DNA of 29,539 nucleotides from an uncultured Pirellulaceae bacterium. GTDB taxonomy: Bacteria > Planctomycetota > Planctomycetia > Pirellulales > Pirellulaceae. The stretch lies in NCBI GenBank assembly GCA_964519825.1, contig CAZFLF010000001.1:1-29539 (forward strand), written 5' to 3'. Under the pieces are notes generated by a model. It made no database searches and was not told where the DNA came from. It worked only from the letters and a program-made list of their open reading frames with translations. The first letter of the stretch is position 1. Each line of letters starts with the position of its first letter. The translations under genes and the position numbers were made by a program. Below are positions 1 through 16,347 of this stretch, one piece after another.

Positions 1-3000
1 CTAACTGATAGTTCCCGTTCAGAATCTCATTGGCATTGACATTAGGATTGTTGGTAAATCCAGAAAACGGTCGAGCTCCAGTGATCATCTCGCCGCGTTC
101 CGCAAACCCGATGACGAGATCGTCAATGTAGACCCCCTCGTTCGGCGCAAAACTACTGTCTGAATAATCAAACCGCAACCGCAAATTGCCCTGCTCCGCG
201 AACGGCGCCAGGTCCACGCGGGCCTGCCGCCAGCCGGTCAACGTCGTGTCGAACAAAGGCGACACACCGGGCTGTGAGAACTGAGCCGGGCTGCTGGATC
301 CAACGATCGTCGTGACGTTTACGGAGTTGATGACCGACACTGTAAACGTGTCCTGCCCAGCTGTCTGATCGAGGAAATAATTAAAATACAGCACCGGGAG
401 GTCGAGGGCGGAGTACCCTTGCAAACTGAATGGATTCGATAAGAGCTCACCTGTTGCGCCCTGGGGAACGGATTGGCTGGCGCCGTCGCCAAAATAGAAA
501 CTCAGTCCAGCATTTCCACCCAGGTTCGATAGGGCGTGATTTTCCACCGACATGTGCAACGTGTAGATGGCACCGGGATTGACTCCCAAGACGGCCCCAG
601 CGGTTACCGGATCTACTTGCTCTACGGCAATGAAATAAGTGCCCGGGTTCGCAAAGGTCGTTTCGATGAACGGGTCACGCGTCGAAGTGCTGCCGGCTTG
701 TCCGAAGTTAATGGACGCCGTGTCGTTCGTGGCGACAACCGCACCCGTCACGTCAAAAATCGTCAACTGCAGGTCCGTGCTGGCCGGGTTCGTCAAGTCG
801 ATGTCGAAGATCCCCACACTATTGGCCACTGGCACCGTAAACGAGTAAAAATCGCGAGTTCCATTCCCCGTTCCGTCAATCGTCAAATGCGGAATCGTCC
901 TGGAAGTGTTTTGATTCGTCGAGTTGCCGATTTCATTGCTAAACAACAAATTCCACGGGCCAAAATTGACGTTCTGCGATCCGAACTGAGAGTCATTGGG
1001 TTCCACTTCCAACAACGTTACGCCGGCACTTAGCGTCACGTCCCGGCTCAAGTCAAACGCCGGCGTCAAACCATGTCCAATATCATTCGTGCGATTCAAT
1101 GTGGTCTGCCAAGAGGCTACGCCGGGAACTCCCGTGACCGGCGTCAAGAGTTCCGACACCACGGGTGCAGCGGCGGTTGACCCGCCCGAAACCCCAATAT
1201 GATCTTCAGCGATTCGCAAGACAGTATTGACGGGCTCCATCCGCAGGCGCGGATTGCTGGGCTGTGAATTGGTGAATTGATCCAAGTCGCGCGGCATTTG
1301 TCCGTTCGACGTGACTGCAACGAAATAGGTACCCTCCGGCAGTTCGGCAGGACCAATCGACGGATCTTTTGGTCCAACGCTGCCGCGCGACAAGTCCGAA
1401 AGATCGGCTCCCGCCAAGGGTCCGGATCTGTCTTCCGAGATATTGGAATCCCGGCCGACCAACACCAGTCTGCGATTGGCGTCGTACACCCAGATACTGG
1501 AATTGAACCGCACGAGGGCATCCGCGCCATCCACATCCAAGACTGTCGGGAAGTGATCGCACAGATTGAATGGATCGTTGGGAGTTTGTAAGGATCCCAG
1601 CGCGCAATTCACACTGTTCGGATTCGCAATGGCGGTGTAATGGACGTCAAATCGATAGAAATCAACATCGACCGAGGAGGACACGGTGCCTGCCACACTG
1701 ATCGCAGCCCGGTCGGAGGTCGCCAGGTTGCCGAGATTCTGCGGCTGATCGCCGGGGCGGATCGCATCGAGCACTAAACTATTGTTGCTGGCAAATGATC
1801 CGGTTAAATCGTCTTCCGCCGCTTCGCCCAGCAACGGTGAGTGTCGCGGGACGCCGATCAATTCGACGCCGTTGTTGGCGTAGCGAATGTCGGCATAACG
1901 AACGGTCGACCCGGGGAATTCATCCTTCTCACGCAATCGGATTTGGAATTGATAAACACCCTTAGTCAAACCATCATTACTGCGCACACGCAGATGGTAA
2001 GAACTCTTCGTGCCGGCATTGCCTGGAAGACCGATCCGCATTCCTGCATCGCGCGGATTGAGCGAATAGAAATCCTTCGGCAGGCCCGAGGCATGAGTCG
2101 CTGCATAGGGAGTCGGCGACTTTTGCAACGGATGGATCAGGTTCGGCTGAATCAACCCGGACACAAAGTCCACAGCCCCGTTAATGTTCTCGTCAATCGT
2201 GTCGTTGGACCGCGCCAGGATTTGACCGTTGGAATCCAACAACTCAATCACGGAATCCAACGCAAATAGGCTGCGGTCGATGTCCAGCCATAACTCCGTG
2301 CCGGCGGTGGCAGTGAAACTATAGACATCGATATCGTTGCGGTCGTTCAGCAGACCCTGAATCTCATATCCCATCCGGAGATTCTCATCCCCCGTTTGCT
2401 CGTTGGACGCCAAACTGCCCAGTAACTGAGCCGTATTCACGGTCGCATTCGTGCCTGGCGCCGTGATATCGGCCGATTCCATTTCGGTCACGATTTCTAC
2501 GTTACGGTCGTTGCTGTCTTGGTCGAGTCGCAGACTTCGCCAATCGTTCGGACGAGGGATGGTGGCGAGGCCGTTATTGTTGGTATCGGTCTGAGGACGC
2601 TCATCGGGTTGCAACCCCGCACCGACGGTGTCGTCGTTTAACGACGTCAACACCACTGGGAAGCCCGGTTGTCCCACGACATGCACGGTGCCGCCGATCC
2701 GATCTTCGATCTCCAGGCGTCTTCCTAAAATAGTGAATCCCGCGCCGTTGTAAGCATTGCGGTTCGAGATCGCACCGTCGTCGATCATGTTGTACGAGTT
2801 ATTCAGCCGTCCCGGTCCCAGCAGCTTGATGACCAGGCTCTCGGTGGAACTGCTTTGCAGCCGCAATCCTCCGTACGTGTGATGTTCGGGCACCACGACT
2901 TCATCGAACGCCCAAATACGAAACCCGTTTCGTGGATCTTGTTGATCGAATTGATTAGTCACTACGTGGACGATGTCGGTATCGTCCCACACGCTTTGCG

Positions 3001-6000
3001 TGGTCAATACTTCACCACGAACCACCATCGCATTCAGGGCGTTGTTGGATAGCCGGTTGTTACGAACCAACGGCCCACGGTTATCTTGGTCGCCTTCGAT
3101 GGCATCGATAAACCCGGTTGATCGACCGTAGTCGACCACAGTTTCGGAGATCAACGAGTTGGCGTTGATCGTCAACACCGGCGATTGGAACGCCGGTGAG
3201 GTCCGATCGGGATCGTTCGCGGCCTTGTATTGAACGTTGTTGTCCCGGAAGGTGTTGTCAAAGATGATCGGTTGAGCACCGCGCACGAACACAGTTCCGA
3301 CGCGGTTATATCCACGACCGAACCGATCCAGTGGTCCTTGTCCGCCGACACCTTCCGCATTGTTTTCGATGATGCTGTGGGCCAGACGGAACTCTGCCTG
3401 ATGGACTTCCAGGACATTGACACCGGTAAACGTCCCTTCGATTTTCGAGACTCCGCCGCCATAGGCGATGACCGCGTGATCGATGCTGCCTCGACTGAGC
3501 GGTCCAAAAAACAAACCGCCCCAGTTACCAGGACGCGGCAGGGTTTGATTCACAACTTGCCGCGCGTCGTCGTTGGTATCAAACGTACCGCCAGCACCAT
3601 ATTTGTCGTCCGCGCGCGACGTGAAAATGACTTCCTGTCCGACTAGTCCCTCCGCGATGAACTGAGCTCCAAAGTTGGCTTCGATACGCCCGCCTTCCGA
3701 CTTCACTACCGTTCCGGGATCAATCGCCAGCCGAGCGTGTGGCCGCGCGCGAATCACGCCGAAGGCGGACGGATCGAGCGTGGCATCCTCGGTGAAACCG
3801 TCATCGATATAGGTCGAACTTGTGGCGTCAATTTCCGCGATGAGCCGGTAGGGACCAATGCCGCCGACGGTACTGCGGTAGATCCGCCGCGCGACGAATT
3901 CGCCAGTCACAGCCGGCAAATTGTCGAGCCGGATGCCTCCTCCAGTGGGAGCTCCGGAGATCGAAACGGTCGTGGTCGGATCGGAAGAGGCTCCCTCGCG
4001 GCCGAGCGCGTCTACAAACACAATGCGATAATTGTAGTCGCCAATTTCCAGCGATCCGCGGGGCTGTACCGTCGAGGTTACTGGTTCGGACGGCGGTGGA
4101 TCGCGCTGCAAAACCGACGACAACGTCGTGCCGCGGTCGACGAAGACGGTATCCGAACCATTGATTTCTGCCACCAGCCGATAGACACGTCCAGCCGGAT
4201 CATCCGTGCGATAGATTCGCCGGCGAGTGAAATCGCCCGTGACCGGTGGCAGCTGATTGAGCTGGATCGCGTTGTTTGCTCCCGTTAGTGTGAAGCTCGC
4301 GGTCGGATTCGACGGTCGACCCTCAAAACCATTCGAATCGACAAAAGTGACCTTGTAGTCATACGTGCCCAGAGCAAGTGTTCCGCCGGTGCGCGGTGTA
4401 AAGGTCACCAGATCGACCGCCGGACGGAGGAGGTCCAAGAACGGCTCGCTGGAGCTGCCTTGAATCACCAGATTCTCCGCCAAAACATGCACGATGTCGG
4501 TGTCATCAAACCGGCCGGACACGGTCAACGGCTGCAACGAATTCCCAGCAGGAGTTTCAATCTTGATGAATAGACCATTCGTCGAATTGTTAATCAGTGT
4601 GTTGGAGTGGATCTCAGGCCCAACGCGCTCGTAGTCCGATGTAAATGTCCCGGCGGTTTGGTAGCGCGGCGAATGGAAATTGGTTTCGTCGAAACTGTTC
4701 GGGGAGGCCGACATGGCTGAGTCGGCGCTCTCGGTGATGCGATTGAATGAAATGGTCGGACGAACGTCCAACATTTGTATTGGATTGACGACTTGCTGGT
4801 TGCCGTCGATTACGACACCGCCGCCACCGCCATAGCGGATGTCGGCGTGGTTGACATAATTCAGAAAGATGCCGTCGTTCTCCAAATTCGGTCGCGACTC
4901 GGCGTCGTCCAAATCGGCGCGGAACATCAGTCCGCCCCAGTCGCCTCGAGCTGGAACGGTCGGCGACGAGGTCGTATCGCGCCCCACGGACTCGTCCAAC
5001 CAAGAAGTGAAATAGACCGACCCGGGCAACGGGTTGCCGGCGGCATCACGCAACACCGCGCCAGTCTGGGGATCGAGCAGGACCGGTGCCCCAAGAATCT
5101 GCAGCGCGCCTCCGCTACGATCGACCGTCAAGCTCGTACTGCCGACGCCGACAAAGGAACGCCGCATTTTGAACACTGCGGCGGGATCGATCATGACCGT
5201 CACGCCGCGCGGCACGGCCATTTCTGTGCCATCACTCAGTGGGCCTGGCAACGTGCCGAATCCAATTTCGTAGGCGAAGTTGTCGTTGATGGTCCCCACA
5301 TTTCCGTCTGATCCGCCGTTCCCAACGATCCGCACGATGTCGCCCGGATGCGCTGCGGCAAAGGCGTTCGCAATTCCCGTCCTCGCTATATTGTTGAACG
5401 GCTTGGCGAGCGAACCGTCGGCGTTTGGATCGGCCTGTTTGTCCACGAAGATCGTCTTGCCTTCGATCACCATGCCGACGAAGCCTGAGCTCAGACTCAG
5501 CGTCCGCTCTCCGGTTAACGTCAGGCGATTCCCCGTGACGGAAACTCCCACGTTGAAGCCGGCGCCGGCGATCGCCGTGGCCAGAGCCTGGGCCAAATCG
5601 GAAGAAGTCGCAGATGTTGAAAACGAAACTCGGGTATTCCCCCCTCCACTCAGGCTATTGTTTGAATCAAATTCGAACTGCCGTACGACACCTTGGCTAT
5701 TGGTAATCGAGATGACTTGCCCGTCGCGAATGGTGGAGCCGTCACCGGTGATCTCCAGAACCCGGAGCAAGGGTCGCGTCTGGAACCAGAAGCTGTGGAC
5801 GCCGCCAGCCACCCCATCTCCGTCTCCGTCGAGCACGGTGAAGTCGCCATCCTTGTCACGAATGGCGTTCTCCTCTTCGACCTGAGACCGGAAATTCAAA
5901 CGGAGGTCATACGATCCCTGGCTGCGCCCATTAATGCCGGTGCCCGCGACTGTCGGATCATATTGGTCGTTCCCCCGCGCGCTGACGCCGATATAGTACA

Positions 6001-9000
6001 CGCCGGGCGACAGATTCAACTCAATATACGAGTCGCGGCTGAAGTAATCGTCATTGCGGGCGATTAATTCACGGCTGCCGTCAGCATTCTCCCGATACAG
6101 GGTCAACGTGGTGTCCAACAAGCTGGAGTTCGGCAGGCGTTCGGCAAACGTCTCCGCCGTGAAATCTCCGGCGCGCCCAGCGTCCAAATCGATCGTGAAC
6201 CGGTACAAATCGATGTCGACCCCGTCCGGCCGATATAAACGTTGACCGTGGATGACATCGGCATTATCGGGGAAAATGGGCTCCGGCTCCGGGTCATTGA
6301 GGAATGGAGACGTCGCGGTGAACCTGGCCATCAACGCGGAGACGGGTAGGTCATTCGCCAACCCGAGACCCAACATGCTGCCGACGCCGACCATGGCGTT
6401 CAGGAACCAATTCGCGCCGTAGTCATCAGTCCACTGAAACCCGTTGTCCATGACCAATAAACTTTCAGCGAATCTCGGATCAACTCGGACCCGGAAATTG
6501 TTGCTCGGAAAGTTCAGGACGTCGGGTAACTGAGTACTGAGAGAATTGATATCTCCGGTGGCAACTGTGAGTCCCTCGCGAGCCGACTCGACAAACTGCA
6601 CGCCCAAATACCGTCCCCATAGTTTGAACGCCTCGCGCGCGCGCTCACGCTGCTGGGCCGTAATCGCGTTGGACAGCGGAATCCCCTGGGGGTCCGAACC
6701 GTAGTCATCGCGAAAGTTGTACAGGATCGTCGTGACCCCAGGCGTGGAGTCACGTCCGTTATCCTGAAAATCGTTATTGATGTGTTGTTCGACACCGAAG
6801 CCAACCTCTTCCGGAATGTCACGATGCCCAGGCTCGTCGTTTCCGCCAGGATAATCCAGCAAGAACGGCAGCGGATCGATCGTCGACGAAATCGTCAAGC
6901 CTTGCGAGGTCTTCACGATGCCGGAGAGGCCGTCGCTCAACAATACCTGCCGATCATTGGTCAAACTGATCTGATCTCCGACGGCAGTGGCTTCAACGTT
7001 GAACGCCGCCGAATTGATTGCGGAGGCAATGCTTTCGGCTAACTCGGTCGGCGTGCTGGCGGCGGAATAAGTGATGGGTCTGGCCAACGGATCGACTTGC
7101 ACACCAATGCCGTCGAAGAACTCGAATGCGACCGTGGTCCCTTGATCGTCGCGAATGCGAATCGTCTGACCGTTGTGGAATCGGTCGCCAGACTGGGTGA
7201 CCCGGAGGGTGGGTCCGGCGTCAAATCGCCCCTCCAAGGTGAGCCGCAGCCCCGACACATCGACCGGAATGCGAACTGCTTGGTCGCCGGTCAACCGAAT
7301 CCGATTCCCGGCGGCCAAAGCCGAAGCCTGAAACGGCGGCGCAACCGTTGGCACAATCGCTGCCGCAATCGCAGCGGCCATCTGGTTCGCGTCAAACGAA
7401 GCATGCGGAACAAACGGTACCGCCACGTGACCAGCCGCAACGCCGCGCCTTCCGGTTAATGATAGATTCGAACCGGTTGGCGCCACGTCCACGTCGCCAA
7501 GATGGACCCGCCCGTTCCCGATATCCAGCGGGCGCACGCCAGTCAGCACATTTGCGGCAACCGCAGCTGCAATGGCATTCGCCGTTTTGGCAGCGATGGT
7601 GAGAAACGTGTCCGCGATGGGACCCGTAACAAACGGAATTGGTTGGTTTCCAGGCGTGAAACTTGCGTTGCTGTCGAACTCGAACGTGACGGCCCCGGCC
7701 CCCTGGCCGACGACAAAGGTCTGGCCGTCGAGAGTCGTAACATCAAACGCCAGTCGCGTCAGCGTACTCCCGGTGACATTGACCGTCGCGCCGGGGGCGG
7801 TGGAGCGAATTTGCACTACGCCTCCACCAAAATTAGCCGTCGAGATGCCGGAAAGTCTCCCTTGCAGAACCGCTTGCCGGATCGCGTCCGCAATCAAACC
7901 ACCGAGCTTATCGGCCGAGTCACCAGCCTGGAATCGGATTGGTATGCGACCGGCCACCACCGTAACCGTCGGATCAGAATCGAATTCAAAAGTCACGGAG
8001 ACCGCGCCGCTGTCCGTGACAGAGAAACTCTGTCCATTAACGATGCCAGTCGCCGCCGCACCAACTACTGGGACTTGCAGTCCGAGCGGAGGGGCGATCT
8101 GTAGCGTGATTCCGCTGTCAAATTCCAACGTTCGGGTATTGTTGGGGTTGGCACTGTCGACGACTTGGATCGTTTGCCCTTCGATGAAACCAGCACCGCT
8201 GGCCGTAACCTCGAGCACCTGACCATTATCAAAGCGATTCTGGAATTGTTTGACGATCCCGTGGGCACCGCTGCTGACATCAACCTTTAGATCCCCGATC
8301 GCATCGCCGACAAAACGAATCTCGTTGCCGGCTAACACCGCGCGGACGCCAAAACTGGCGCTATTGATCGCATTCACAATGGAGTTGGCGATTTCCGCCG
8401 GCGTGTCATTGACGTCAACCGAAATACCAGTGGCAACCGCGTCGTTTTTGATGGCCGGAACATCGGTGTCAAATTCAAACTTCCGGCGAACATTGGCCGC
8501 GTCGGTGATCTCGAAGAAGTCGCCGTCGACGAACGAGATCCCGCTGCCAACAACAGCCACCACCGGGCCGACATCGGTGTCGTCGGCCAGATTCGTGGCG
8601 GTGTCGAATGAACTTCCCAGGCCACTCATCTCGAGCGGCGAGTAGGTCACCGCCCGATCCCCGACTTTGGTCGCCGCAGCTCCACCGCTGATGGAAGCCA
8701 CCAGCAACTTTCTGGCCTCCGCGTGGCTGTTGACTGCCGCGACAACATCTCCCGCCGTCGACTCGTTGTTGAGGTTGGAGTTCAAATCAATCGACACGGC
8801 CTTGCCGACCACATGGACCAAAGGAGCCCCCGCCGCGCCTTGATCGTGGCGCGATACAAACACCGATATCCCTTGTTCACCCGGGCGCACGGCCGTGAAC
8901 TGGATGACGACCTGATCGTCGGTGTTGAAGTCCGAGGAGATTTCCTGCACCGGGGACAACGACAATGGCGGCAACGGTGCCGCTTCGTCCGTCCCAACCC

Positions 9001-9919
9001 GTAAGCGGAAATTCCCTGGTCCAATCAGCACTCCATTGTCTGGGTTCAGCAATTGGTCCAAGTCTTGAGCAAAGGTCAGCGTCGCGATATCCGACGCGGG
9101 ATCGTAGACCACAGTCGTCGGTTGAATTACCACGTCGTCCGTGTTTCGAACGGTGTCATTAGTAAAGATCAGCTGATAAAACTCGGGGTTCTCCGCGGAT
9201 GTCGGCAGCGGACGACCGAGCCCATCGCTCTCCTTCAACAAATCGTCGTTGTTGAAGTAAACCTGGATCTGGTTGCGGGCTTGCGTTAACGCTCCTTGGT
9301 TGCGCGAAATGGGTTGTGGGACAACCGCGACAACCTGCGGACCCAAATCCAATTCAAACCGCACGGTGTCCTTCGTCGCATCGCCGTCACCGTCGTTGAG
9401 TGTCGGGACAAATGACAAAGCACCCTGACCAGGTTGCGTCGGTAGATTACGCAGCGGCGTGGCCGACCCGGCCCCCAGAATCTCGATCTGATATAGGTCG
9501 TCCGGCAACGATTCGGCAAAGCGGATCACCACTTCATTCTGACGCGGCGCGGCCCCCACACCGATAAAACCAGGAACCACGACGTCTTGCGGTTGATTGC
9601 CGATGATTCCGTCGGCTCCTCCGCGGACAATCCGAATCGCATTGAGCGTAGTCGGATCAATCTGTTGATTCTCATCGAACCGAATCGTCACTTGCCTCGG
9701 AGCTTCCGACCGGACATTGGCGCTCGGGTCGGAAAACGAAAACAGATCGCTGTTGTTCGGCTGCAAACCGGTCAACTGAGGGCCATTCGCCAACAGGCGA
9801 CGGTCTTCTAATGATTCCAATAAGAGCCTGCGTTCCATCGCACGCTCGCCCTCGGAACTGGGCTTCCTCCGCTGGCGTTTCGAGACGAATTGCGCAAAAC
9901 GAGATCGTCGCATAGTCAT
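1..9919 (-). CDS. Giant secreted/surface multidomain protein (>3300 aa, 3' end outside window). Order of parts: planctomycete extracellular motif, Ig-like domains, repeated FEFD modules, degenerate M10-like metalloprotease domain, PPC domains, right-handed beta-helix units, MAM/jelly-roll-like domain
   Basis: Not in the ORF track because it has no stop in the window. ATG at 9919 reads MTMRRSRFAQFVSKRQRRKPSSEGERAMERRLLLESLEDRRLLANGP. The same frame gives coherent protein at every spot I translated (~8400, 7000, 6350, 6000, 4950, 3500, 2400, 2-240). The track lists no minus-strand ORF in this frame between 1 and 9900, consistent with no internal stop. PPC-like sequence ARNDDYFSRDSYIELNLSPGVYYIGVS occurs at ~5980-6060. 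Confidence 0.93.
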   Translation of the reverse strand, partial: MTMRRSRFAQFVSKRQRRKPSSEGERAMERRLLLESLEDRRLLANGPQLTGLQPNNSDLFSFSDPSANVRSEAPRQVTIRFDENQQIDPTTLNAIRIVRGGADGIIGNQPQDVVVPGFIGVGAAPRQNEVVIRFAESLPDDLYQIEILGAGSATPLRNLPTQPGQGALSFVPTLNDGDGDATKDTVRFELDLGPQVVAVVPQPISRNQGALTQARNQIQVYFNNDDLLKESDGLGRPLPTSAENPEFYQLIFTNDTVRNTDDVVIQPTTVVYDPASDIATLTFAQDLDQLLNPDNGVLIGPGNFRLRVGTDEAAPLPPLSLSPVQEISSDFNTDDQVVIQFTAVRPGEQGISVFVSRHDQGAAGAPLVHVVGKAVSIDLNSNLNNESTAGDVVAAVNSHAEARKLLVASISGGAAATKVGDRAVTYSPLEMSGLGSSFDTATNLADDTDVGPVVAVVGSGISFVDGDFFEITDAANVRRKFEFDTDVPAIKNDAVATGISVDVNDTPAEIANSIVNAINSASFGVRAVLAGNEIRFVGDAIGDLKVDVSSGAHGIVKQFQNRFDNGQVLEVTASGAGFIEGQTIQVVDSANPNNTRTLEFDSGITLQIAPPLGLQVPVVGAAATGIVNGQSFSVTDSGAVSVTFEFDSDPTVTVVAGRIPIRFQAGDSADKLGGLIADAIRQAVLQGRLSGISTANFGGGVVQIRSTAPGATVNVTGSTLTRLAFDVTTLDGQTFVVGQGAGAVTFEFDSNASFTPGNQPIPFVTGPIADTFLTIAAKTANAIAAAVAANVLTGVRPLDIGNGRVHLGDVDVAPTGSNLSLTGRRGVAAGHVAVPFVPHASFDANQMAAAIAAAIVPTVAPPFQASALAAGNRIRLTGDQAVRIPVDVSGLRLTLEGRFDAGPTLRVTQSGDRFHNGQTIRIRDDQGTTVAFEFFDGIGVQVDPLARPITYSAASTPTELAESIASAINSAAFNVEATAVGDQISLTNDRQVLLSDGLSGIVKTSQGLTISSTIDPLPFLLDYPGGNDEPGHRDIPEEVGFGVEQHINNDFQDNGRDSTPGVTTILYNFRDDYGSDPQGIPLSNAITAQQRERAREAFKLWGRYLGVQFVESAREGLTVATGDINSLSTQLPDVLNFPSNNFRVRVDPRFAESLLVMDNGFQWTDDYGANWFLNAMVGVGSMLGLGLANDLPVSALMARFTATSPFLNDPEPEPIFPDNADVIHGQRLYRPDGVDIDLYRFTIDLDAGRAGDFTAETFAERLPNSSLLDTTLTLYRENADGSRELIARNDDYFSRDSYIELNLSPGVYYIGVSARGNDQYDPTVAGTGINGRSQGSYDLRLNFRSQVEEENAIRDKDGDFTVLDGDGDGVAGGVHSFWFQTRPLLRVLEITGDGSTIRDGQVISITNSQGVVRQFEFDSNNSLSGGGNTRVSFSTSATSSDLAQALATAIAGAGFNVGVSVTGNRLTLTGERTLSLSSGFVGMVIEGKTIFVDKQADPNADGSLAKPFNNIARTGIANAFAAAHPGDIVRIVGNGGSDGNVGTINDNFAYEIGFGTLPGPLSDGTEMAVPRGVTVMIDPAAVFKMRRSFVGVGSTSLTVDRSGGALQILGAPVLLDPQTGAVLRDAAGNPLPGSVYFTSWLDESVGRDTTSSPTVPARGDWGGLMFRADLDDAESRPNLENDGIFLNYVNHADIRYGGGGGVVIDGNQQVVNPIQMLDVRPTISFNRITESADSAMSASPNSFDETNFHSPRYQTAGTFTSDYERVGPEIHSNTLINNSTNGLFIKIETPAGNSLQPLTVSGRFDDTDIVHVLAENLVIQGSSSEPFLDLLRPAVDLVTFTPRTGGTLALGTYDYKVTFVDSNGFEGRPSNPTASFTLTGANNAIQLNQLPPVTGDFTRRRIYRTDDPAGRVYRLVAEINGSDTVFVDRGTTLSSVLQRDPPPSEPVTSTVQPRGSLEIGDYNYRIVFVDALGREGASSDPTTTVSISGAPTGGGIRLDNLPAVTGEFVARRIYRSTVGGIGPYRLIAEIDATSSTYIDDGFTEDATLDPSAFGVIRARPHARLAIDPGTVVKSEGGRIEANFGAQFIAEGLVGQEVIFTSRADDKYGAGGTFDTNDDARQVVNQTLPRPGNWGGLFFGPLSRGSIDHAVIAYGGGVSKIEGTFTGVNVLEVHQAEFRLAHSIIENNAEGVGGQGPLDRFGRGYNRVGTVFVRGAQPIIFDNTFRDNNVQYKAANDPDRTSPAFQSPVLTINANSLISETVVDYGRSTGFIDAIEGDQDNRGPLVRNNRLSNNALNAMVVRGEVLTTQSVWDDTDIVHVVTNQFDQQDPRNGFRIWAFDEVVVPEHHTYGGLRLQSSSTESLVIKLLGPGRLNNSYNMIDDGAISNRNAYNGAGFTILGRRLEIEDRIGGTVHVVGQPGFPVVLTSLNDDTVGAGLQPDERPQTDTNNNGLATIPRPNDWRSLRLDQDSNDRNVEIVTEMESADITAPGTNATVNTAQLLGSLASNEQTGDENLRMGYEIQGLLNDRNDIDVYSFTATAGTELWLDIDRSLFALDSVIELLDSNGQILARSNDTIDENINGAVDFVSGLIQPNLIHPLQKSPTPYAATHASGLPKDFYSLNPRDAGMRIGLPGNAGTKSSYHLRVRSNDGLTKGVYQFQIRLREKDEFPGSTVRYADIRYANNGVELIGVPRHSPLLGEAAEDDLTGSFASNNSLVLDAIRPGDQPQNLGNLATSDRAAISVAGTVSSSVDVDFYRFDVHYTAIANPNSVNCALGSLQTPNDPFNLCDHFPTVLDVDGADALVRFNSSIWVYDANRRLVLVGRDSNISEDRSGPLAGADLSDLSRGSVGPKDPSIGPAELPEGTYFVAVTSNGQMPRDLDQFTNSQPSNPRLRMEPVNTVLRIAEDHIGVSGGSTAAAPVVSELLTPVTGVPGVASWQTTLNRTNDIGHGLTPAFDLSRDVTLSAGVTLLEVEPNDSQFGSQNVNFGPWNLLFSNEIGNSTNQNTSRTIPHLTIDGTGNGTRDFYSFTVPVANSVGIFDIDLTNPASTDLQLTIFDVTGAVVATNDTASINFGQAGSTSTRDPFIETTFANPGTYFIAVEQVDPVTAGAVLGVNPGAIYTLHMSVENHALSNLGGNAGLSFYFGDGASQSVPQGATGELLSNPFSLQGYSALDLPVLYFNYFLDQTAGQDTFTVSVINSVNVTTIVGSSSPAQFSQPGVSPLFDTTLTGWRQARVDLAPFAEQGNLRLRFDYSDSSFAPNEGVYIDDLVIGFAERGEMITGARPFSGFTNNPNVNANEILNGNYQL

Positions 9920-12808: not shown

Positions 12809-13780
12809 CTAATGGCCGCCGTTCATGGCAGTGAACATCTTGCGATACATTTCGATCCCCGCGGGTCCGACGAGCACTACGAAGATGCCCGGAAAGATAA
12901 ATAGGACCAGTGGAAAGATCAGTTTGACCGCGGTCTTGGCGGCCTTTTCTTCTGCCAGCTGCCGGCGACGCGTGCGCATCGACTCGCTTTGCACGCGCAA
13001 CGCCTGGGCAATACTCGATCCGAATTTGTCGGCCTGAATAAGAATGGACGCCAACTGCCGGAGGTCTTCGACGCCGCTGCGAATGCCTAGGTCTTGCAAT
13101 GCTTCGGACCGCGTTTTACCCATTTGCAATTGCAGGTTGCACAGCCCGAACTCTTCCGCGATGACGCGATAGGTGCGTTTCATTTCTTCCGCGACTTTCC
13201 GCATGGCTTGATCCAGCCCCAATCCGGCTTCGACGCAGACGACCAGCATGTCCAAGCCATCGGGCAATCCCAGGAAGATCGATTCCTTGCGCTTGGAAGC
13301 CTTGAGGGCGAGCAAAACGTCCGGGATGAAGAACAACACGCAGGCGATCGCGGCCGAGTTGAGCATCGTCTGCATTTTGGTGCCGAACATCAAAATGCCG
13401 CTGCCTCCCAGCAACAGCCCGAGCATCAGACACAGGAACTTCAATCCCAAGAAGACCGTCGACGCGTCTTGGCCGCGAAACCCGGCCTGCAATAAGCGCA
13501 ACTTCAGCTTCCCGACTTCGAGCTCGGTCTTGGGCTGCAGTGCTTTCGCCAGAGCCGGCGTGGCTTTCTCGAGTACGCGCGACATTGCCTCGCCGGGATT
13601 CTTCGTCAGCTCCTCCTTGTTGCGCCGCCCGGACGGTTCGCGCCAGTCATCGAGTCGTTCTTCGGCACGGTTGCGTTTGCCGCCCCCCATCCAATCGAGT
13701 GCGATCCACGCCACCGCCATCGCGCCGACGAATGCCGCGACTGGAATCAACGCGTAGAAACTCATCGCCACGAGGAACAT
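12809..13780 (-). CDS. tadC: Tad pilus platform protein TadC (type II secretion system F family)
   Basis: LPDGLDMLVVCVEAGLGLDQA, ILIQADKFGSSIAQALR, AEEKAAKTAVKLIFPLVLFIFP. Follows tadB with a 2-nt gap. Confidence 0.9.
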   Translation of the reverse strand: MFLVAMSFYALIPVAAFVGAMAVAWIALDWMGGGKRNRAEERLDDWREPSGRRNKEELTKNPGEAMSRVLEKATPALAKALQPKTELEVGKLKLRLLQAGFRGQDASTVFLGLKFLCLMLGLLLGGSGILMFGTKMQTMLNSAAIACVLFFIPDVLLALKASKRKESIFLGLPDGLDMLVVCVEAGLGLDQAMRKVAEEMKRTYRVIAEEFGLCNLQLQMGKTRSEALQDLGIRSGVEDLRQLASILIQADKFGSSIAQALRVQSESMRTRRRQLAEEKAAKTAVKLIFPLVLFIFPGIFVVLVGPAGIEMYRKMFTAMNGGH

Positions 13781-13782
13781 GA

Positions 13783-14760
13783 CTACACCTTGATATTGAT
13801 GATCTTCTTGATGACGAACGCGCCAAGCAGTTGCATCACAACCGCGAACGCCAGTAGTTGTCTGCCCAATTCATCGCGGAACAGCACCATGATGTATTCG
13901 TAGTTCAGCCGGTACATCACCACGAACAAGATCGGCGGCAGTGCGAGCAACACGATGCCGGACAATCGTCCTTCCCCCGTCAATGCCTGGATTTGGCCCC
14001 AGATCTTGAATCGCTCGCGAACTAGATGCCCGATCTTATCGAGGATCTCCGCGAGGTCACCCCCCGTTTGACGCTGCAGGGTGATGGCGGTGGCGAAAAA
14101 CTTCAAATCGAGATTTGGCACACGCTCGGTCATCGTTTGGATGGCGTCTTCCAGGGGAATGCCCAGGTTTTGTTCTTCGTAGCAACGGGAGAACTCCGAG
14201 CGGATGGGTTCGGCCATTTCGTCGCCGACCAGATTGAATCCAGCGCTGAGGCTATGGCCCGCCCGCAACGCGCGGCTGATGAGTTCGAGGGCTTCCGGAA
14301 GTTGAACGCCGAATTTGGTCAAGCGGCGTTTGCGTTTGAAGAGGACAAACAGCATTGGTAAGGATCCGGCCACGAGCGCCGCCAGAGGCATCGCCCACAA
14401 AGGCGAACGGCTTACCAGGCATCCGACGGAGCCTACGACCGACAAGACAATGGTGAGCACGAGGAACTGCGTCGGCCCCAGCTTCACTCCTCCCTGTTCG
14501 AGCATTTTGCGCAAATCGCCGAAATGCGAGAACAACGCTTCTGCCAGGGTCCGCTGTTCTCCTAGCGGCTGCGCCAGCAGTGTCGGCATCTCTTGGCTGC
14601 CAATCCCCTTTCTCCCGGTCGCGGCGCCGGCCGCGGTGAGGAAATCTAGCCGATCTTCCAAATCCGTGGACGACTTGCCGCCGAACGTCATGGCCACGGC
14701 GGCGATGACCGCGGTCACAAATACAAACACGGCGATCAGAATAATGATTGGCGAAAACAT
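13783..14760 (-). CDS. tadB: Tad pilus platform protein TadB (type II secretion system F family)
   Basis: QLPEALELISRALRAGHSL, QRQTGGDLAEILD, LTGEGRLSG. Lies between cpaF and tadC. Confidence 0.92.
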   Translation of the reverse strand: MFSPIIILIAVFVFVTAVIAAVAMTFGGKSSTDLEDRLDFLTAAGAATGRKGIGSQEMPTLLAQPLGEQRTLAEALFSHFGDLRKMLEQGGVKLGPTQFLVLTIVLSVVGSVGCLVSRSPLWAMPLAALVAGSLPMLFVLFKRKRRLTKFGVQLPEALELISRALRAGHSLSAGFNLVGDEMAEPIRSEFSRCYEEQNLGIPLEDAIQTMTERVPNLDLKFFATAITLQRQTGGDLAEILDKIGHLVRERFKIWGQIQALTGEGRLSGIVLLALPPILFVVMYRLNYEYIMVLFRDELGRQLLAFAVVMQLLGAFVIKKIINIKV

Positions 14761-14771
14761 GCGTCACCTGG

Positions 14772-16100
14772 CTAGTCTTTCAGCATGACTCGTTGACGGA
14801 ATGCACTGGCGGGCAACTTTACGCCGCACGATTCCATGCGGTCCATGAAGGTGGGCCGCACGCCCGTGGCCTCGAATCTGCCGCGCGCTCGTCCGCTCTC
14901 GTCAATCCCTTCCTGGATGTACTGGTAAATGTCCTGCATGATCACCGTGTCCTGCTCCATGCCAACAACTTCGGTGATATAGGTGACGCGGCGCGATCCG
15001 CCTTGCAGACGACTGGCTTGAATGATCAAGTCGACGGCGCTGGAGATTTGCTGCCGCATCGCGCGCATCGGCATCTCGAAGCCCGACATCATGATCATGG
15101 TTTCCAATCGAGCCAGCGCATCGCGCGGGGTATTCGCGTGCAGCGTGGTGAGCGACCCGTCGTGCCCCGTATTCATGGCCTGCAACATGTCGAGTGCTTC
15201 GGGTCCGCGACACTCACCGATGATGATTCGTTCAGGACGCATACGCAGGGCGTTGCGGACGAGATCAGTGGCGGTCACCGCACCTTTGCCTTCGATGTTG
15301 GGCGGGCGAGTCTCCAAACGCACGACGTGCTCTTGCTGAAGTTGCAACTCCGCCGCGTCCTCAATCGTCACCACACGCTCATGATTGGGAATGAAGCTGG
15401 ATAGGGTATTGAGCAGCGTCGTCTTCCCGGAGCCGGTCCCGCCCGACACGATCACGTTGAGCCGCGCTTTGATGGCTCCCTCCAGCAACATCACCATCTC
15501 CGGCGTGAACGCCTTGTAGTTGAGCAGATCCTCCAACTTGAGCGGATTGGCCCCGAATCGCCGAATCGACACCGCCGCGCCATCGAGCGCCAGTGGAGGA
15601 ATGATCGCGTTCACGCGCGAGCCATCGGGCAATCGGGCATCGACCATCGGACTCACTTCGTCGACGCGCCGCCCGACGCGGGACACGATGCGGTCGATGA
15701 TCTGCAACAGATGCTTGTTGTCACGGAATTCAACGGTGGTTTTTTCCAGCTTCCCCCGGCGCTCGACATAAATGTTCTTCGGACCGTTGATCAAGATGTC
15801 GCTGATCGTATTGTCCTTGAGCAGGAATTCCAGCGGACCGAACCCCAGCGTTTCATCGAGCACCTCTTCGATCAGCCGATCGCGCTCGCTGCGATTCAGT
15901 AACGTGTCTTCGGTGTCGCAGAGATGCTCGACCACGAGGCGAATCTCACGGCGCAGAATGTCTCCCTGAAGGTCGCCAACGCGGGTCAGGTCGAGCTTGT
16001 CCACCAGCTTGTTGTGGATGCGGCGCTTAAGGGCCTCGTACTCTTGAACCTTCGTTTGCTCCGCGGAACGGGCAGGAGGATTAACCGGTTTCATGACCAT
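14772..16100 (-). CDS. cpaF: CpaF/TadA family pilus assembly ATPase
   Basis: Walker [42 protein letters not shown]. Start placed at ATG 16100 (GGAAAG upstream); 16094 is also possible. Confidence 0.95.
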
Positions 16101-16347
16101 GATGAGCTTTCCACGGATTCTAAGGACCAAAATACCGGCACGTCTCAGTCAATGCCGGCCACGGAAACCAGACCGGCGGCACTGCCGCGGTCTGGCCCGA
16201 TTCTTGTGAACTAAGGAAACATAGCTCACGCGAACCTGCCGTGTGGCGAATCGTCAACGGCTGTGCAAAACGTGCGTGATGGGGAGACCGTAACGACTGT
16301 GCCGAAGAAACGGCCGTAGAATTATCGCGCACGGCCGCGAGTGCGAC

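Follow-up and report, generated by a model that had tools for sequence, protein, structure and literature searches.

Giant genes are a known feature of planctomycetes and are thought to code for surface or adhesion proteins (PMC5177795), and a protein of 6858 amino acids from Stieleria varia is annotated as 'Matrixin' (PMC7717043). This analysis concerns a domain in a giant protein of an uncultured Pirellulaceae bacterium. The domain has the predicted fold of the M10 metallopeptidases, which include the matrixins and serralysins, and it has lost their zinc site. It is encoded on a stretch of 29,539 nucleotides (assembly GCA_964519825.1, contig CAZFLF010000001.1), referred to below as the window, which makes up the whole of contig C1 in a metagenome-assembled genome (MAG) of 8.0 Mb and 85% completeness. 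The domain is very probably an inactive M10 homologue that is maintained by selection, and a PPC-like domain follows it in the protein.

Related proteins that have lost their catalytic motif are known outside the bacteria. According to a review of pseudo-metallopeptidases, ADAM11, ADAM22 and ADAM23 have the metzincin fold without HExxH and are kept as extracellular protein-binding modules (PMC11266112). The evolutionary outcome resembles that seen here, but the ADAMs belong to family M12B, to another kingdom and to another architecture. Homology is at the clan level only, and the likeness may be one of functional analogy. The review covers ADAMs and other proteins; a term search of its text finds M10 named twice in passing and nothing about bacterial pseudo-peptidases of that family. 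In a 2025 phylogenetic study of bacterial matrix metalloproteinases (MMPs), every sequence without HEXXHXXGXXH was discarded (PMC12587646). The dead branch was overlooked because surveys of bacterial MMPs dropped motif-less sequences. No account of the dead M10 clade described here was found in the literature searched, the coverage of which is incomplete.

The intact M10+PPC cassette of planctomycetes shares with the window the PGxxDEPGHR segment, the helix A motif, the spacing of the Met-turn, the helix C block and the downstream PPC-like domain. It is also found in giant host proteins, often at a similar position, and the Stieleria varia 'Matrixin' protein is an example. In contrast to the window, it has HEIGHLLGLGH and the edge-strand segment GPGGVxG, while the clade of the window has x-G-x-G-x-x-L-G-L-x-x and, in place of GPGGVxG, a 13-residue insert with F-x-V-R-x-D-P-x-F.

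An M10 domain that has lost its zinc site

The zinc consensus HExxHxxGxxH and the general-base Glu of M10 enzymes are absent from the window domain. In homologues HEIGHLLGLGH lies exactly at the position of VGVGSMLGLGL. The window stretch at this place is WFLNAMVGVGSMLGLGLANDLPVSALMAR, and the intact forms read ..WF.TAMHEIGHLLGLGHxYDLPxxTIMG.. there. V1177, S1181 and L1187 stand in the columns of the first, second and third His, and G1178 stands in that of the Glu. G1184, in the conserved Gly column, is the sole motif residue that is kept. These are the replacements that the initial annotation had read from the sequence, with the spacing and the Gly retained, and the strings that it quoted, including TTILYNF, VGVGSMLGLGL and SALM, all lie in one minus-strand frame at the coordinates listed in Table 1. 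Because the three His and the Glu are replaced, the domain should have no canonical zinc binding or water activation.

Other elements of M10 enzymes are retained. M1197 is at +10 from the third ligand column, matching the intact homologues (..TIMG), and it stands where the Met of the M10 Met-turn is expected. Helix C is within the block EPxFPG[DN]xDIxHGQxLxRPD, which is conserved across all groups in a consensus comparison. We take this block to resemble the MMP helix-C motif D-D-x-x-G-I-Q-x-L-Y.

The predicted structure has the metzincin catalytic-domain fold, with a five-stranded sheet and helices A, B and C. The AlphaFold2 model of the domain was built with a 25-sequence alignment and has a mean predicted local distance difference test score (pLDDT) of 80.4, with values of 87-97 for model residues 50-180 and 52-63 for model residues 1-40. 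The elements follow in the order strand, long helix, strands, a helix at 161-173 that carries the degenerate motif, and a C-terminal helix. In the PDB, every one of the top 50 Foldseek matches is the catalytic domain of karilysin or of an MMP (E ~1e-6 to 5e-5, probability 1.0). In VIA-align comparisons with serralysins and MMPs, Z scores are 13.5-15.1 across 143-193 residues. Pseudomonas alkaline protease has a Z of 15.1 (186 residues) and the remaining serralysins 13.8-14.6, while MMP-3, MMP-7 and karilysin have ~14.0-14.2 (14.2 for MMP-3 and karilysin), with a root mean square deviation (rmsd) of 2.7-3.2 Å over ~146-158 residues. Thus the M10 fold proposed in the initial annotation is supported, and its serralysin label is matched by an equal likeness to MMPs. 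Because the Z scores are tied, the domain cannot be assigned to a matrixin-like or a serralysin-like type.

Each of the two subfamilies shares some features with the domain and lacks others. The matrixins and karilysin (MEROPS M10A) provide the top Foldseek structures, 4in9, 2xs3 and 2xs4 (E ~2e-6). Unlike them, the window domain has neither the catalytic-site ligands nor a visible His of the S-loop structural zinc site, and it lies mid-chain in a giant protein rather than after a pro-peptide. Identity to matrixins is only 14-21%. Z is highest with the serralysins (M10B: 1kap, Serratia 1sat and PrtC), at 15.1-13.8. Their alignments are also the longest (183-193 residues), as they take in the N-terminal extension from model residue 19 onwards. 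However, the rmsd to serralysins is 3.5-4.8 Å, and the window has a PPC-like domain instead of the RTX beta-roll. There is no Tyr after the Met of the window's Met-turn, and only 10 residues separate the third ligand position from this Met, whereas serralysins have a long spacer there.

The sequence link to solved M10 enzymes passes through the intact homologues. Pfam, NCBIfam and PDB sequence searches with the domain alone (residues 1010-1235) recognise no peptidase, and PF00413 does not match it even at E <= 10. The NCBIfam match is confined to the downstream PPC-like part. Two other candidates were rejected: the Pfam match to GH30 (E = 0.014) is spurious, and the trehalase that is the best phmmer match among PDB sequences (E = 1.3) is not a significant recognition. 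A region-restricted search finds 56 giant homologues of 2600-5800 amino acids, many with a precomputed PF00413 match, and their named hosts are Pirellulaceae, Pirellulales or Planctomycetota. At E <= 1e-3 an exhaustive phmmer search finds 700 cluster representatives, of which 141 also pass E <= 1e-30, and the best reach 1e-95. Intact-motif, PF00413-positive domains are reached at E = 1e-40 to 1e-48 with ~40-47% identity. The correspondence of the motifs is therefore far above chance, as is also seen in the fold comparisons (Z = 14-15).

Profile searches give a similar picture. PF00413 matches nine of 25 family members scanned singly, and the window domain is not among them. The intact paralogues in the same genome score 28.6 and 31.4 bits against a gathering cut-off of 24, and a PF00413 scan of the window domain and of a second dead paralogue from this genome gives no match. 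Searching with a mixed profile of the family brings up MMPs, among them MMP-12, at E = 2.7e-4. The alignment runs from helix A through helix B and places the family consensus REvfelysrylGVqF opposite RKAFQVWSNVTPLKF of MMP-12. A profile of the dead clade only reaches no M10 structure; its matches are in the flanking regions and to BMP1 at E = 1.3, which is why the link is transitive. In an ESM Atlas feature search the ten best look-alikes are all matrixin clusters, with scores of 0.91-0.93.

No alternative zinc ligands, whose presence in an active domain would have overturned the initial annotation, are visible at the former site in a consensus comparison and an inventory of His and Cys. The domain has no Cys. 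Of its three His, none is at the former zinc site or in helix B: 1032, 1046 and 1224 belong to the N-terminal extension and helix C. P-G-H-R of the N-terminal segment and His1046 are near-invariant in intact and dead homologues alike, and the same is true of the longer PGxxDEPGHRDIP...H stretch and of His1224. Because they are equally conserved in intact homologues, these His are not replacements for the lost site. It is very improbable that the domain is still an enzyme that uses them, or acidic residues, as alternative metal ligands or works by other chemistry: Gly replaces the general base and no Cys is present, even though the three His and several Asp and Glu are near-invariant and some pseudoenzymes are known to have catalytic residues that have moved to other positions (PMC10211241). 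The N-terminal segment, in a region that is modelled at low confidence, may together with His1224 act as a structural metal site, or it may be akin to a pro-segment.

Intact and dead cassettes in planctomycetes

Intact and dead versions of the domain separate in phylogenetic trees, and the window domain belongs to a deep clade of dead forms. The trees are unrooted, and the 11 columns of the motif were left out of the alignments behind them. Among the matches listed, 76 of 181 full-length domains keep HExxHxxGxx[H/D] and 105 do not; the sample is enriched for dead forms because the query itself is dead. In a FastTree analysis of the 181 rows the window is inside an all-dead clade of 49 rows (SH-like support 93), and parsimony gives 19 changes between intact and dead states in total. 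In a careful IQ-TREE analysis of 67 rows the clade has an ultrafast bootstrap of 95 and a support of 88 in the SH-like approximate likelihood ratio test (SH-aLRT). It is present in 98% of the bootstrap trees, from a bootstrap that stopped short of full convergence (correlation 0.949). In a 'quick' IQ-TREE run the SH-aLRT of this branch is only 11%.

The 49 representatives are more than 50% different from each other and all share the same motif form, x-G-[IVL]-G-x-x-L-G-L-x-x. At least 80% of the members have Gly in the Glu column. The Met-turn block D-L-P..L-M is kept (consensus dLP.stLm), with Leu for Met in a few close homologues. The 13-residue insert is specific to this clade and reads NFRVRVDPRF in the window. 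On the basis of the profile alignment to MMP-12, it would correspond to the S-loop and strand IV, the upper rim of the substrate cleft.

The zinc site has been lost more than once. The approximately unbiased (AU) test rejects a single group of all dead rows (log-likelihood difference 74.6, p = 0.013), and therefore the losses happened repeatedly. In the 67-row sample at least 4-5 changes are forced by well-supported branches, and parsimony gives 9-12. The more scattered dead sequences lack the 13-residue insert and look like recent losses. The replacement motifs are highly varied across the family (for example RQ..F, KE..R, QG..Q and HE..S in proteins P0002-P0199). Their variety points to recurrent inactivation, in a sample biased by the dead query.

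Purifying selection acts on the dead domain, and more strongly than on its flank. Across its length, the giant protein is 46-59% identical to four colinear orthologues (P0002, P0003, P0004 and P0006). Identity is 60-69% in the domain, 75-77% in the PPC-like domain and 14-43% in the preceding repeat region. The orthologue from a genome of the same genus reads VGVGSLLGLEL in the motif. In a Nei-Gojobori comparison with it, the proportions of nonsynonymous and synonymous differences within the domain (pN and pS) are 0.217 and 0.776, and pN rises to 0.385 in the upstream part. With synonymous sites saturated, these values give only a bound on omega and no dN/dS ratio; pN is nevertheless far below pS. 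The domain thus combines lost catalytic residues, a retained fold and purifying selection, as expected of a pseudoenzyme. The absence of any Pfam or NCBIfam match to the window domain would fit a degenerating remnant, in which the site was lost through decay of the gene or domain. This explanation is effectively refuted by 3306 uninterrupted codons, colinear orthologues in other MAGs, the low pN, and the depth and uniform motif of the clade.

The M10+PPC cassette is common to intact and dead forms. The PPC-like domain scores 30.1 bits with NCBIfam NF038127 (DVUA0089 family; cut-off 29) and 17.9 bits with Pfam PF04151 (E = 0.006; cut-off 25.9), and homologues carry precomputed PF04151. Its AlphaFold2 model is all-beta (pLDDT 72.8). 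The best Foldseek matches are ColG/ColH collagen-binding domains and subtilase C-terminal domains (E = 2e-3 to 8e-3, TM ~0.5). The evidence for the PPC domain placed here by the initial annotation is weaker than that for the M10 fold: NF038127 is just over its cut-off and the model is all-beta, but the Pfam PPC score is under the cut-off and the fold match is at E ~2e-3.

The MAG of the window has four cassettes in four giant open reading frames (ORFs). Those on C368 (L002) and C371 (L004) are intact, with HEIGHLLGMGH and HEIGHTLGLDH, and those on C1 and C40 (L003/L005) are dead. The C40 copy is independently dead; its motif has gained one residue and reads RQIGS-T-LLGLGV. This mixture of copies in one genome would fit a regulator or decoy, in which the dead domain competes for substrates or inhibitors or pairs with the intact cassettes, and regulation of active relatives by pseudo-peptidases is a known theme (PMC11266112). 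Such a role is unlikely for the window domain. The paralogues are on different contigs, without evidence of linkage or co-occurrence, and all copies are embedded in proteins of more than 2000 amino acids, in which a simple heterodimer is speculative. The cassette is found in 20 of the 24 other genera of the family, often in several copies and in ORFs of 4000-8500 amino acids. It is patchy in the order (five of 16 other families), and the rest of the phylum has three matches in a 200-genome sample.

The giant protein and its surroundings

The features of the window are listed in Table 1. The giant ORF is uninterrupted, with 3306 amino acids visible, and its C-terminus is off the end of the contig. 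Its N-terminus has the planctomycete extracellular motif ESLEDRRLLA and a weak match to PF07595; apart from this match, Pfam detects just PPC domains. An active protease domain was sought elsewhere in the 3306 visible residues and none was found, and neither HExxH nor HxxEH is present in any of them.

Table 1. Features of the giant gene and its surroundings, with positions in the window and residues of the giant ORF.
Feature	Position	Strand	Residues	Evidence
Giant ORF	2-9919	-		ORF call; Pfam scan with PF07595 at E = 3e-4 (under cut-off) and PPC at 1.5e-12
Motif ESLEDRRLLA, within LLLESLEDRRLLA	9788-9817			
Modules ending in [FL]EF[DF], six copies	5520-8530	-	~470-1420	
Pseudo-M10 (predicted metzincin-fold) domain	6215-6892	-	1010-1235	AlphaFold2 model, fold matches, homology to PF00413-positive domains, ESM Atlas
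Confidently modelled core of pseudo-M10 domain	6215-6784	-	about 1046-1235	AlphaFold2, core pLDDT >90
N-terminal segment PGGNDEPGHRDIP	6812-6850	-	1024-1036	conservation; low-confidence model
PGxxDEPGHRDIP...H	6776-6850		1024-1048	near-invariant in intact and dead forms
TTILYNF	6713-6733	-	1063-1069	read in ORF translation
Helix A and strand II motif QQRERAREAFKLWGRYLGVQFVE	6587-6655	-	1089-1111	model helix 79-96, strand 98-102
Remodelled region PDVLNFPSNNFRVRVDPRFAES, putative S-loop/edge strand	6461-6526	-	1132-1153	group consensus; model strands 125-127 and 133-136, pLDDT 87-96
NFRVRVDPRF of the clade-specific insert	6470-6499		1141-1150	
Degenerate zinc motif VGVGSMLGLGL	6359-6391	-	1177-1187	alignment; model helix 161-173 (active-site helix B), pLDDT 86-93
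Met-turn equivalent SALM	6329-6340	-	1194-1197	alignment; M1197 in family Met-turn column
C-terminal helix C DNADVIHGQRLY	6233-6268	-	1218-1229	model helix 210-219; consensus
PPC-like beta-sandwich (110 residues)	5885-6214	-	1236-1345	profile and model matches
Two T2SS-F-type genes and one T2SS-E-type ATPase gene	12809-16130	-		

Short modules ending in [FL]EF[DF] occur in six copies, with FEFD at residues 481, 644, 746 and 1415, LEFD at 598 and FEFF at 932. Most of them precede the pseudo-M10 domain and one copy comes past the PPC-like domain; a Pfam search finds no matching family for them. The module region is the least conserved part of the protein among the orthologues (the repeat region mentioned above). 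In the orthologue P0002, from a Pirellulaceae MAG, residues 2961-3348 form an S8 subtilase together with an N-pro domain of fervidolysin-like type. At this site the window protein has PPC/MAM-like sequence and identity falls to ~29%; the C-terminal part of the giant protein is therefore modular and variable.

The neighbouring genes are functionally unrelated: a GFO/IDH/MocA oxidoreductase gene, genes of the E and F types of the type II secretion system (T2SS), cytochrome b/Rieske genes and riboflavin genes. The T2SS-type genes are ~3 kb upstream of the giant gene, with the GFO/IDH/MocA gene in between, and make up either a Tad/type IV pilus-like set or one for type II secretion.

Role and significance of the dead domain

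Taken together, the observations are best explained by a pseudo-protease of an old dead clade whose most likely role is that of a non-catalytic ligand-binding or docking module, and this explanation as a whole is likely. An old clade of Pirellulaceae-type giant secreted proteins has kept the whole M10+PPC cassette with the motif fixed. The strand region at the putative rim of the cleft was rebuilt with the new conserved signature F-x-V-R-x-D-P-x-F. Small and hydrophobic side chains may fill the former metal site and hold the scaffold of helix B and the Met-turn folded without zinc. The remodelled cleft and the adjoining PPC beta-sandwich may then form a module for peptide or polymer binding, or for docking, at the cell surface or outside the cell.

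Several points weigh against this explanation. A binding module specifically is a tentative assignment, with a chance somewhat short of even, since it is drawn from conservation alone. His1032, His1046 and His1224 could form an unrecognised metal site. The model may be too confident in helix B, where two Gly occur, and the shape of the cleft and the way in which the former zinc site is packed are presumptive. In addition, the clade was drawn on a tree of matches to a dead query, which enriches dead forms, and in unrooted trees a "clade" is strictly one side of a branch.

A purely architectural role, in which the dead cassette is a rigid spacer or folding unit whose cleft has no ligand, is possible but not probable. 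Repeats and beta-helix/PPC domains surround the cassette in a long row, and the many independent site losses counted above suggest that catalysis is often dispensable. However, a spacer is not expected to exceed the average conservation of the protein, nor to gain a highly conserved signature at the rim of the cleft. In a more specific version of the ligand-binding explanation, zinc loss was followed by neo-functionalisation of the dead clade for recognition: the cleft with its new rim would bind a specific peptide or polymer jointly with the PPC domain on Pirellulaceae giant surface proteins. This is speculative and on balance doubtful. If true, the many independent inactivations would mean that the cassette is selected mainly for capturing substrates and not for cleaving them, and the clade would be a bacterial counterpart of the non-catalytic ADAMs.

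The giant genes of planctomycetes are numerous and almost wholly uncharacterised, and annotation pipelines miss this domain or label its relatives 'peptidase' or 'matrixin'. Since there is a deep, conserved M10 clade without the zinc site, and over half of the cassettes retrieved have no intact site, protease activity should not be inferred from such labels. For pseudoenzyme biology the advance is incremental and brings no new principle, since pseudo-peptidases are already known, while the dead M10 branch was previously unannotated. The family is a natural series of repeated bacterial transitions from enzyme to pseudoenzyme, and a single genome has both intact and dead copies. This series could be used to study the function of the metzincin scaffold without its metal.

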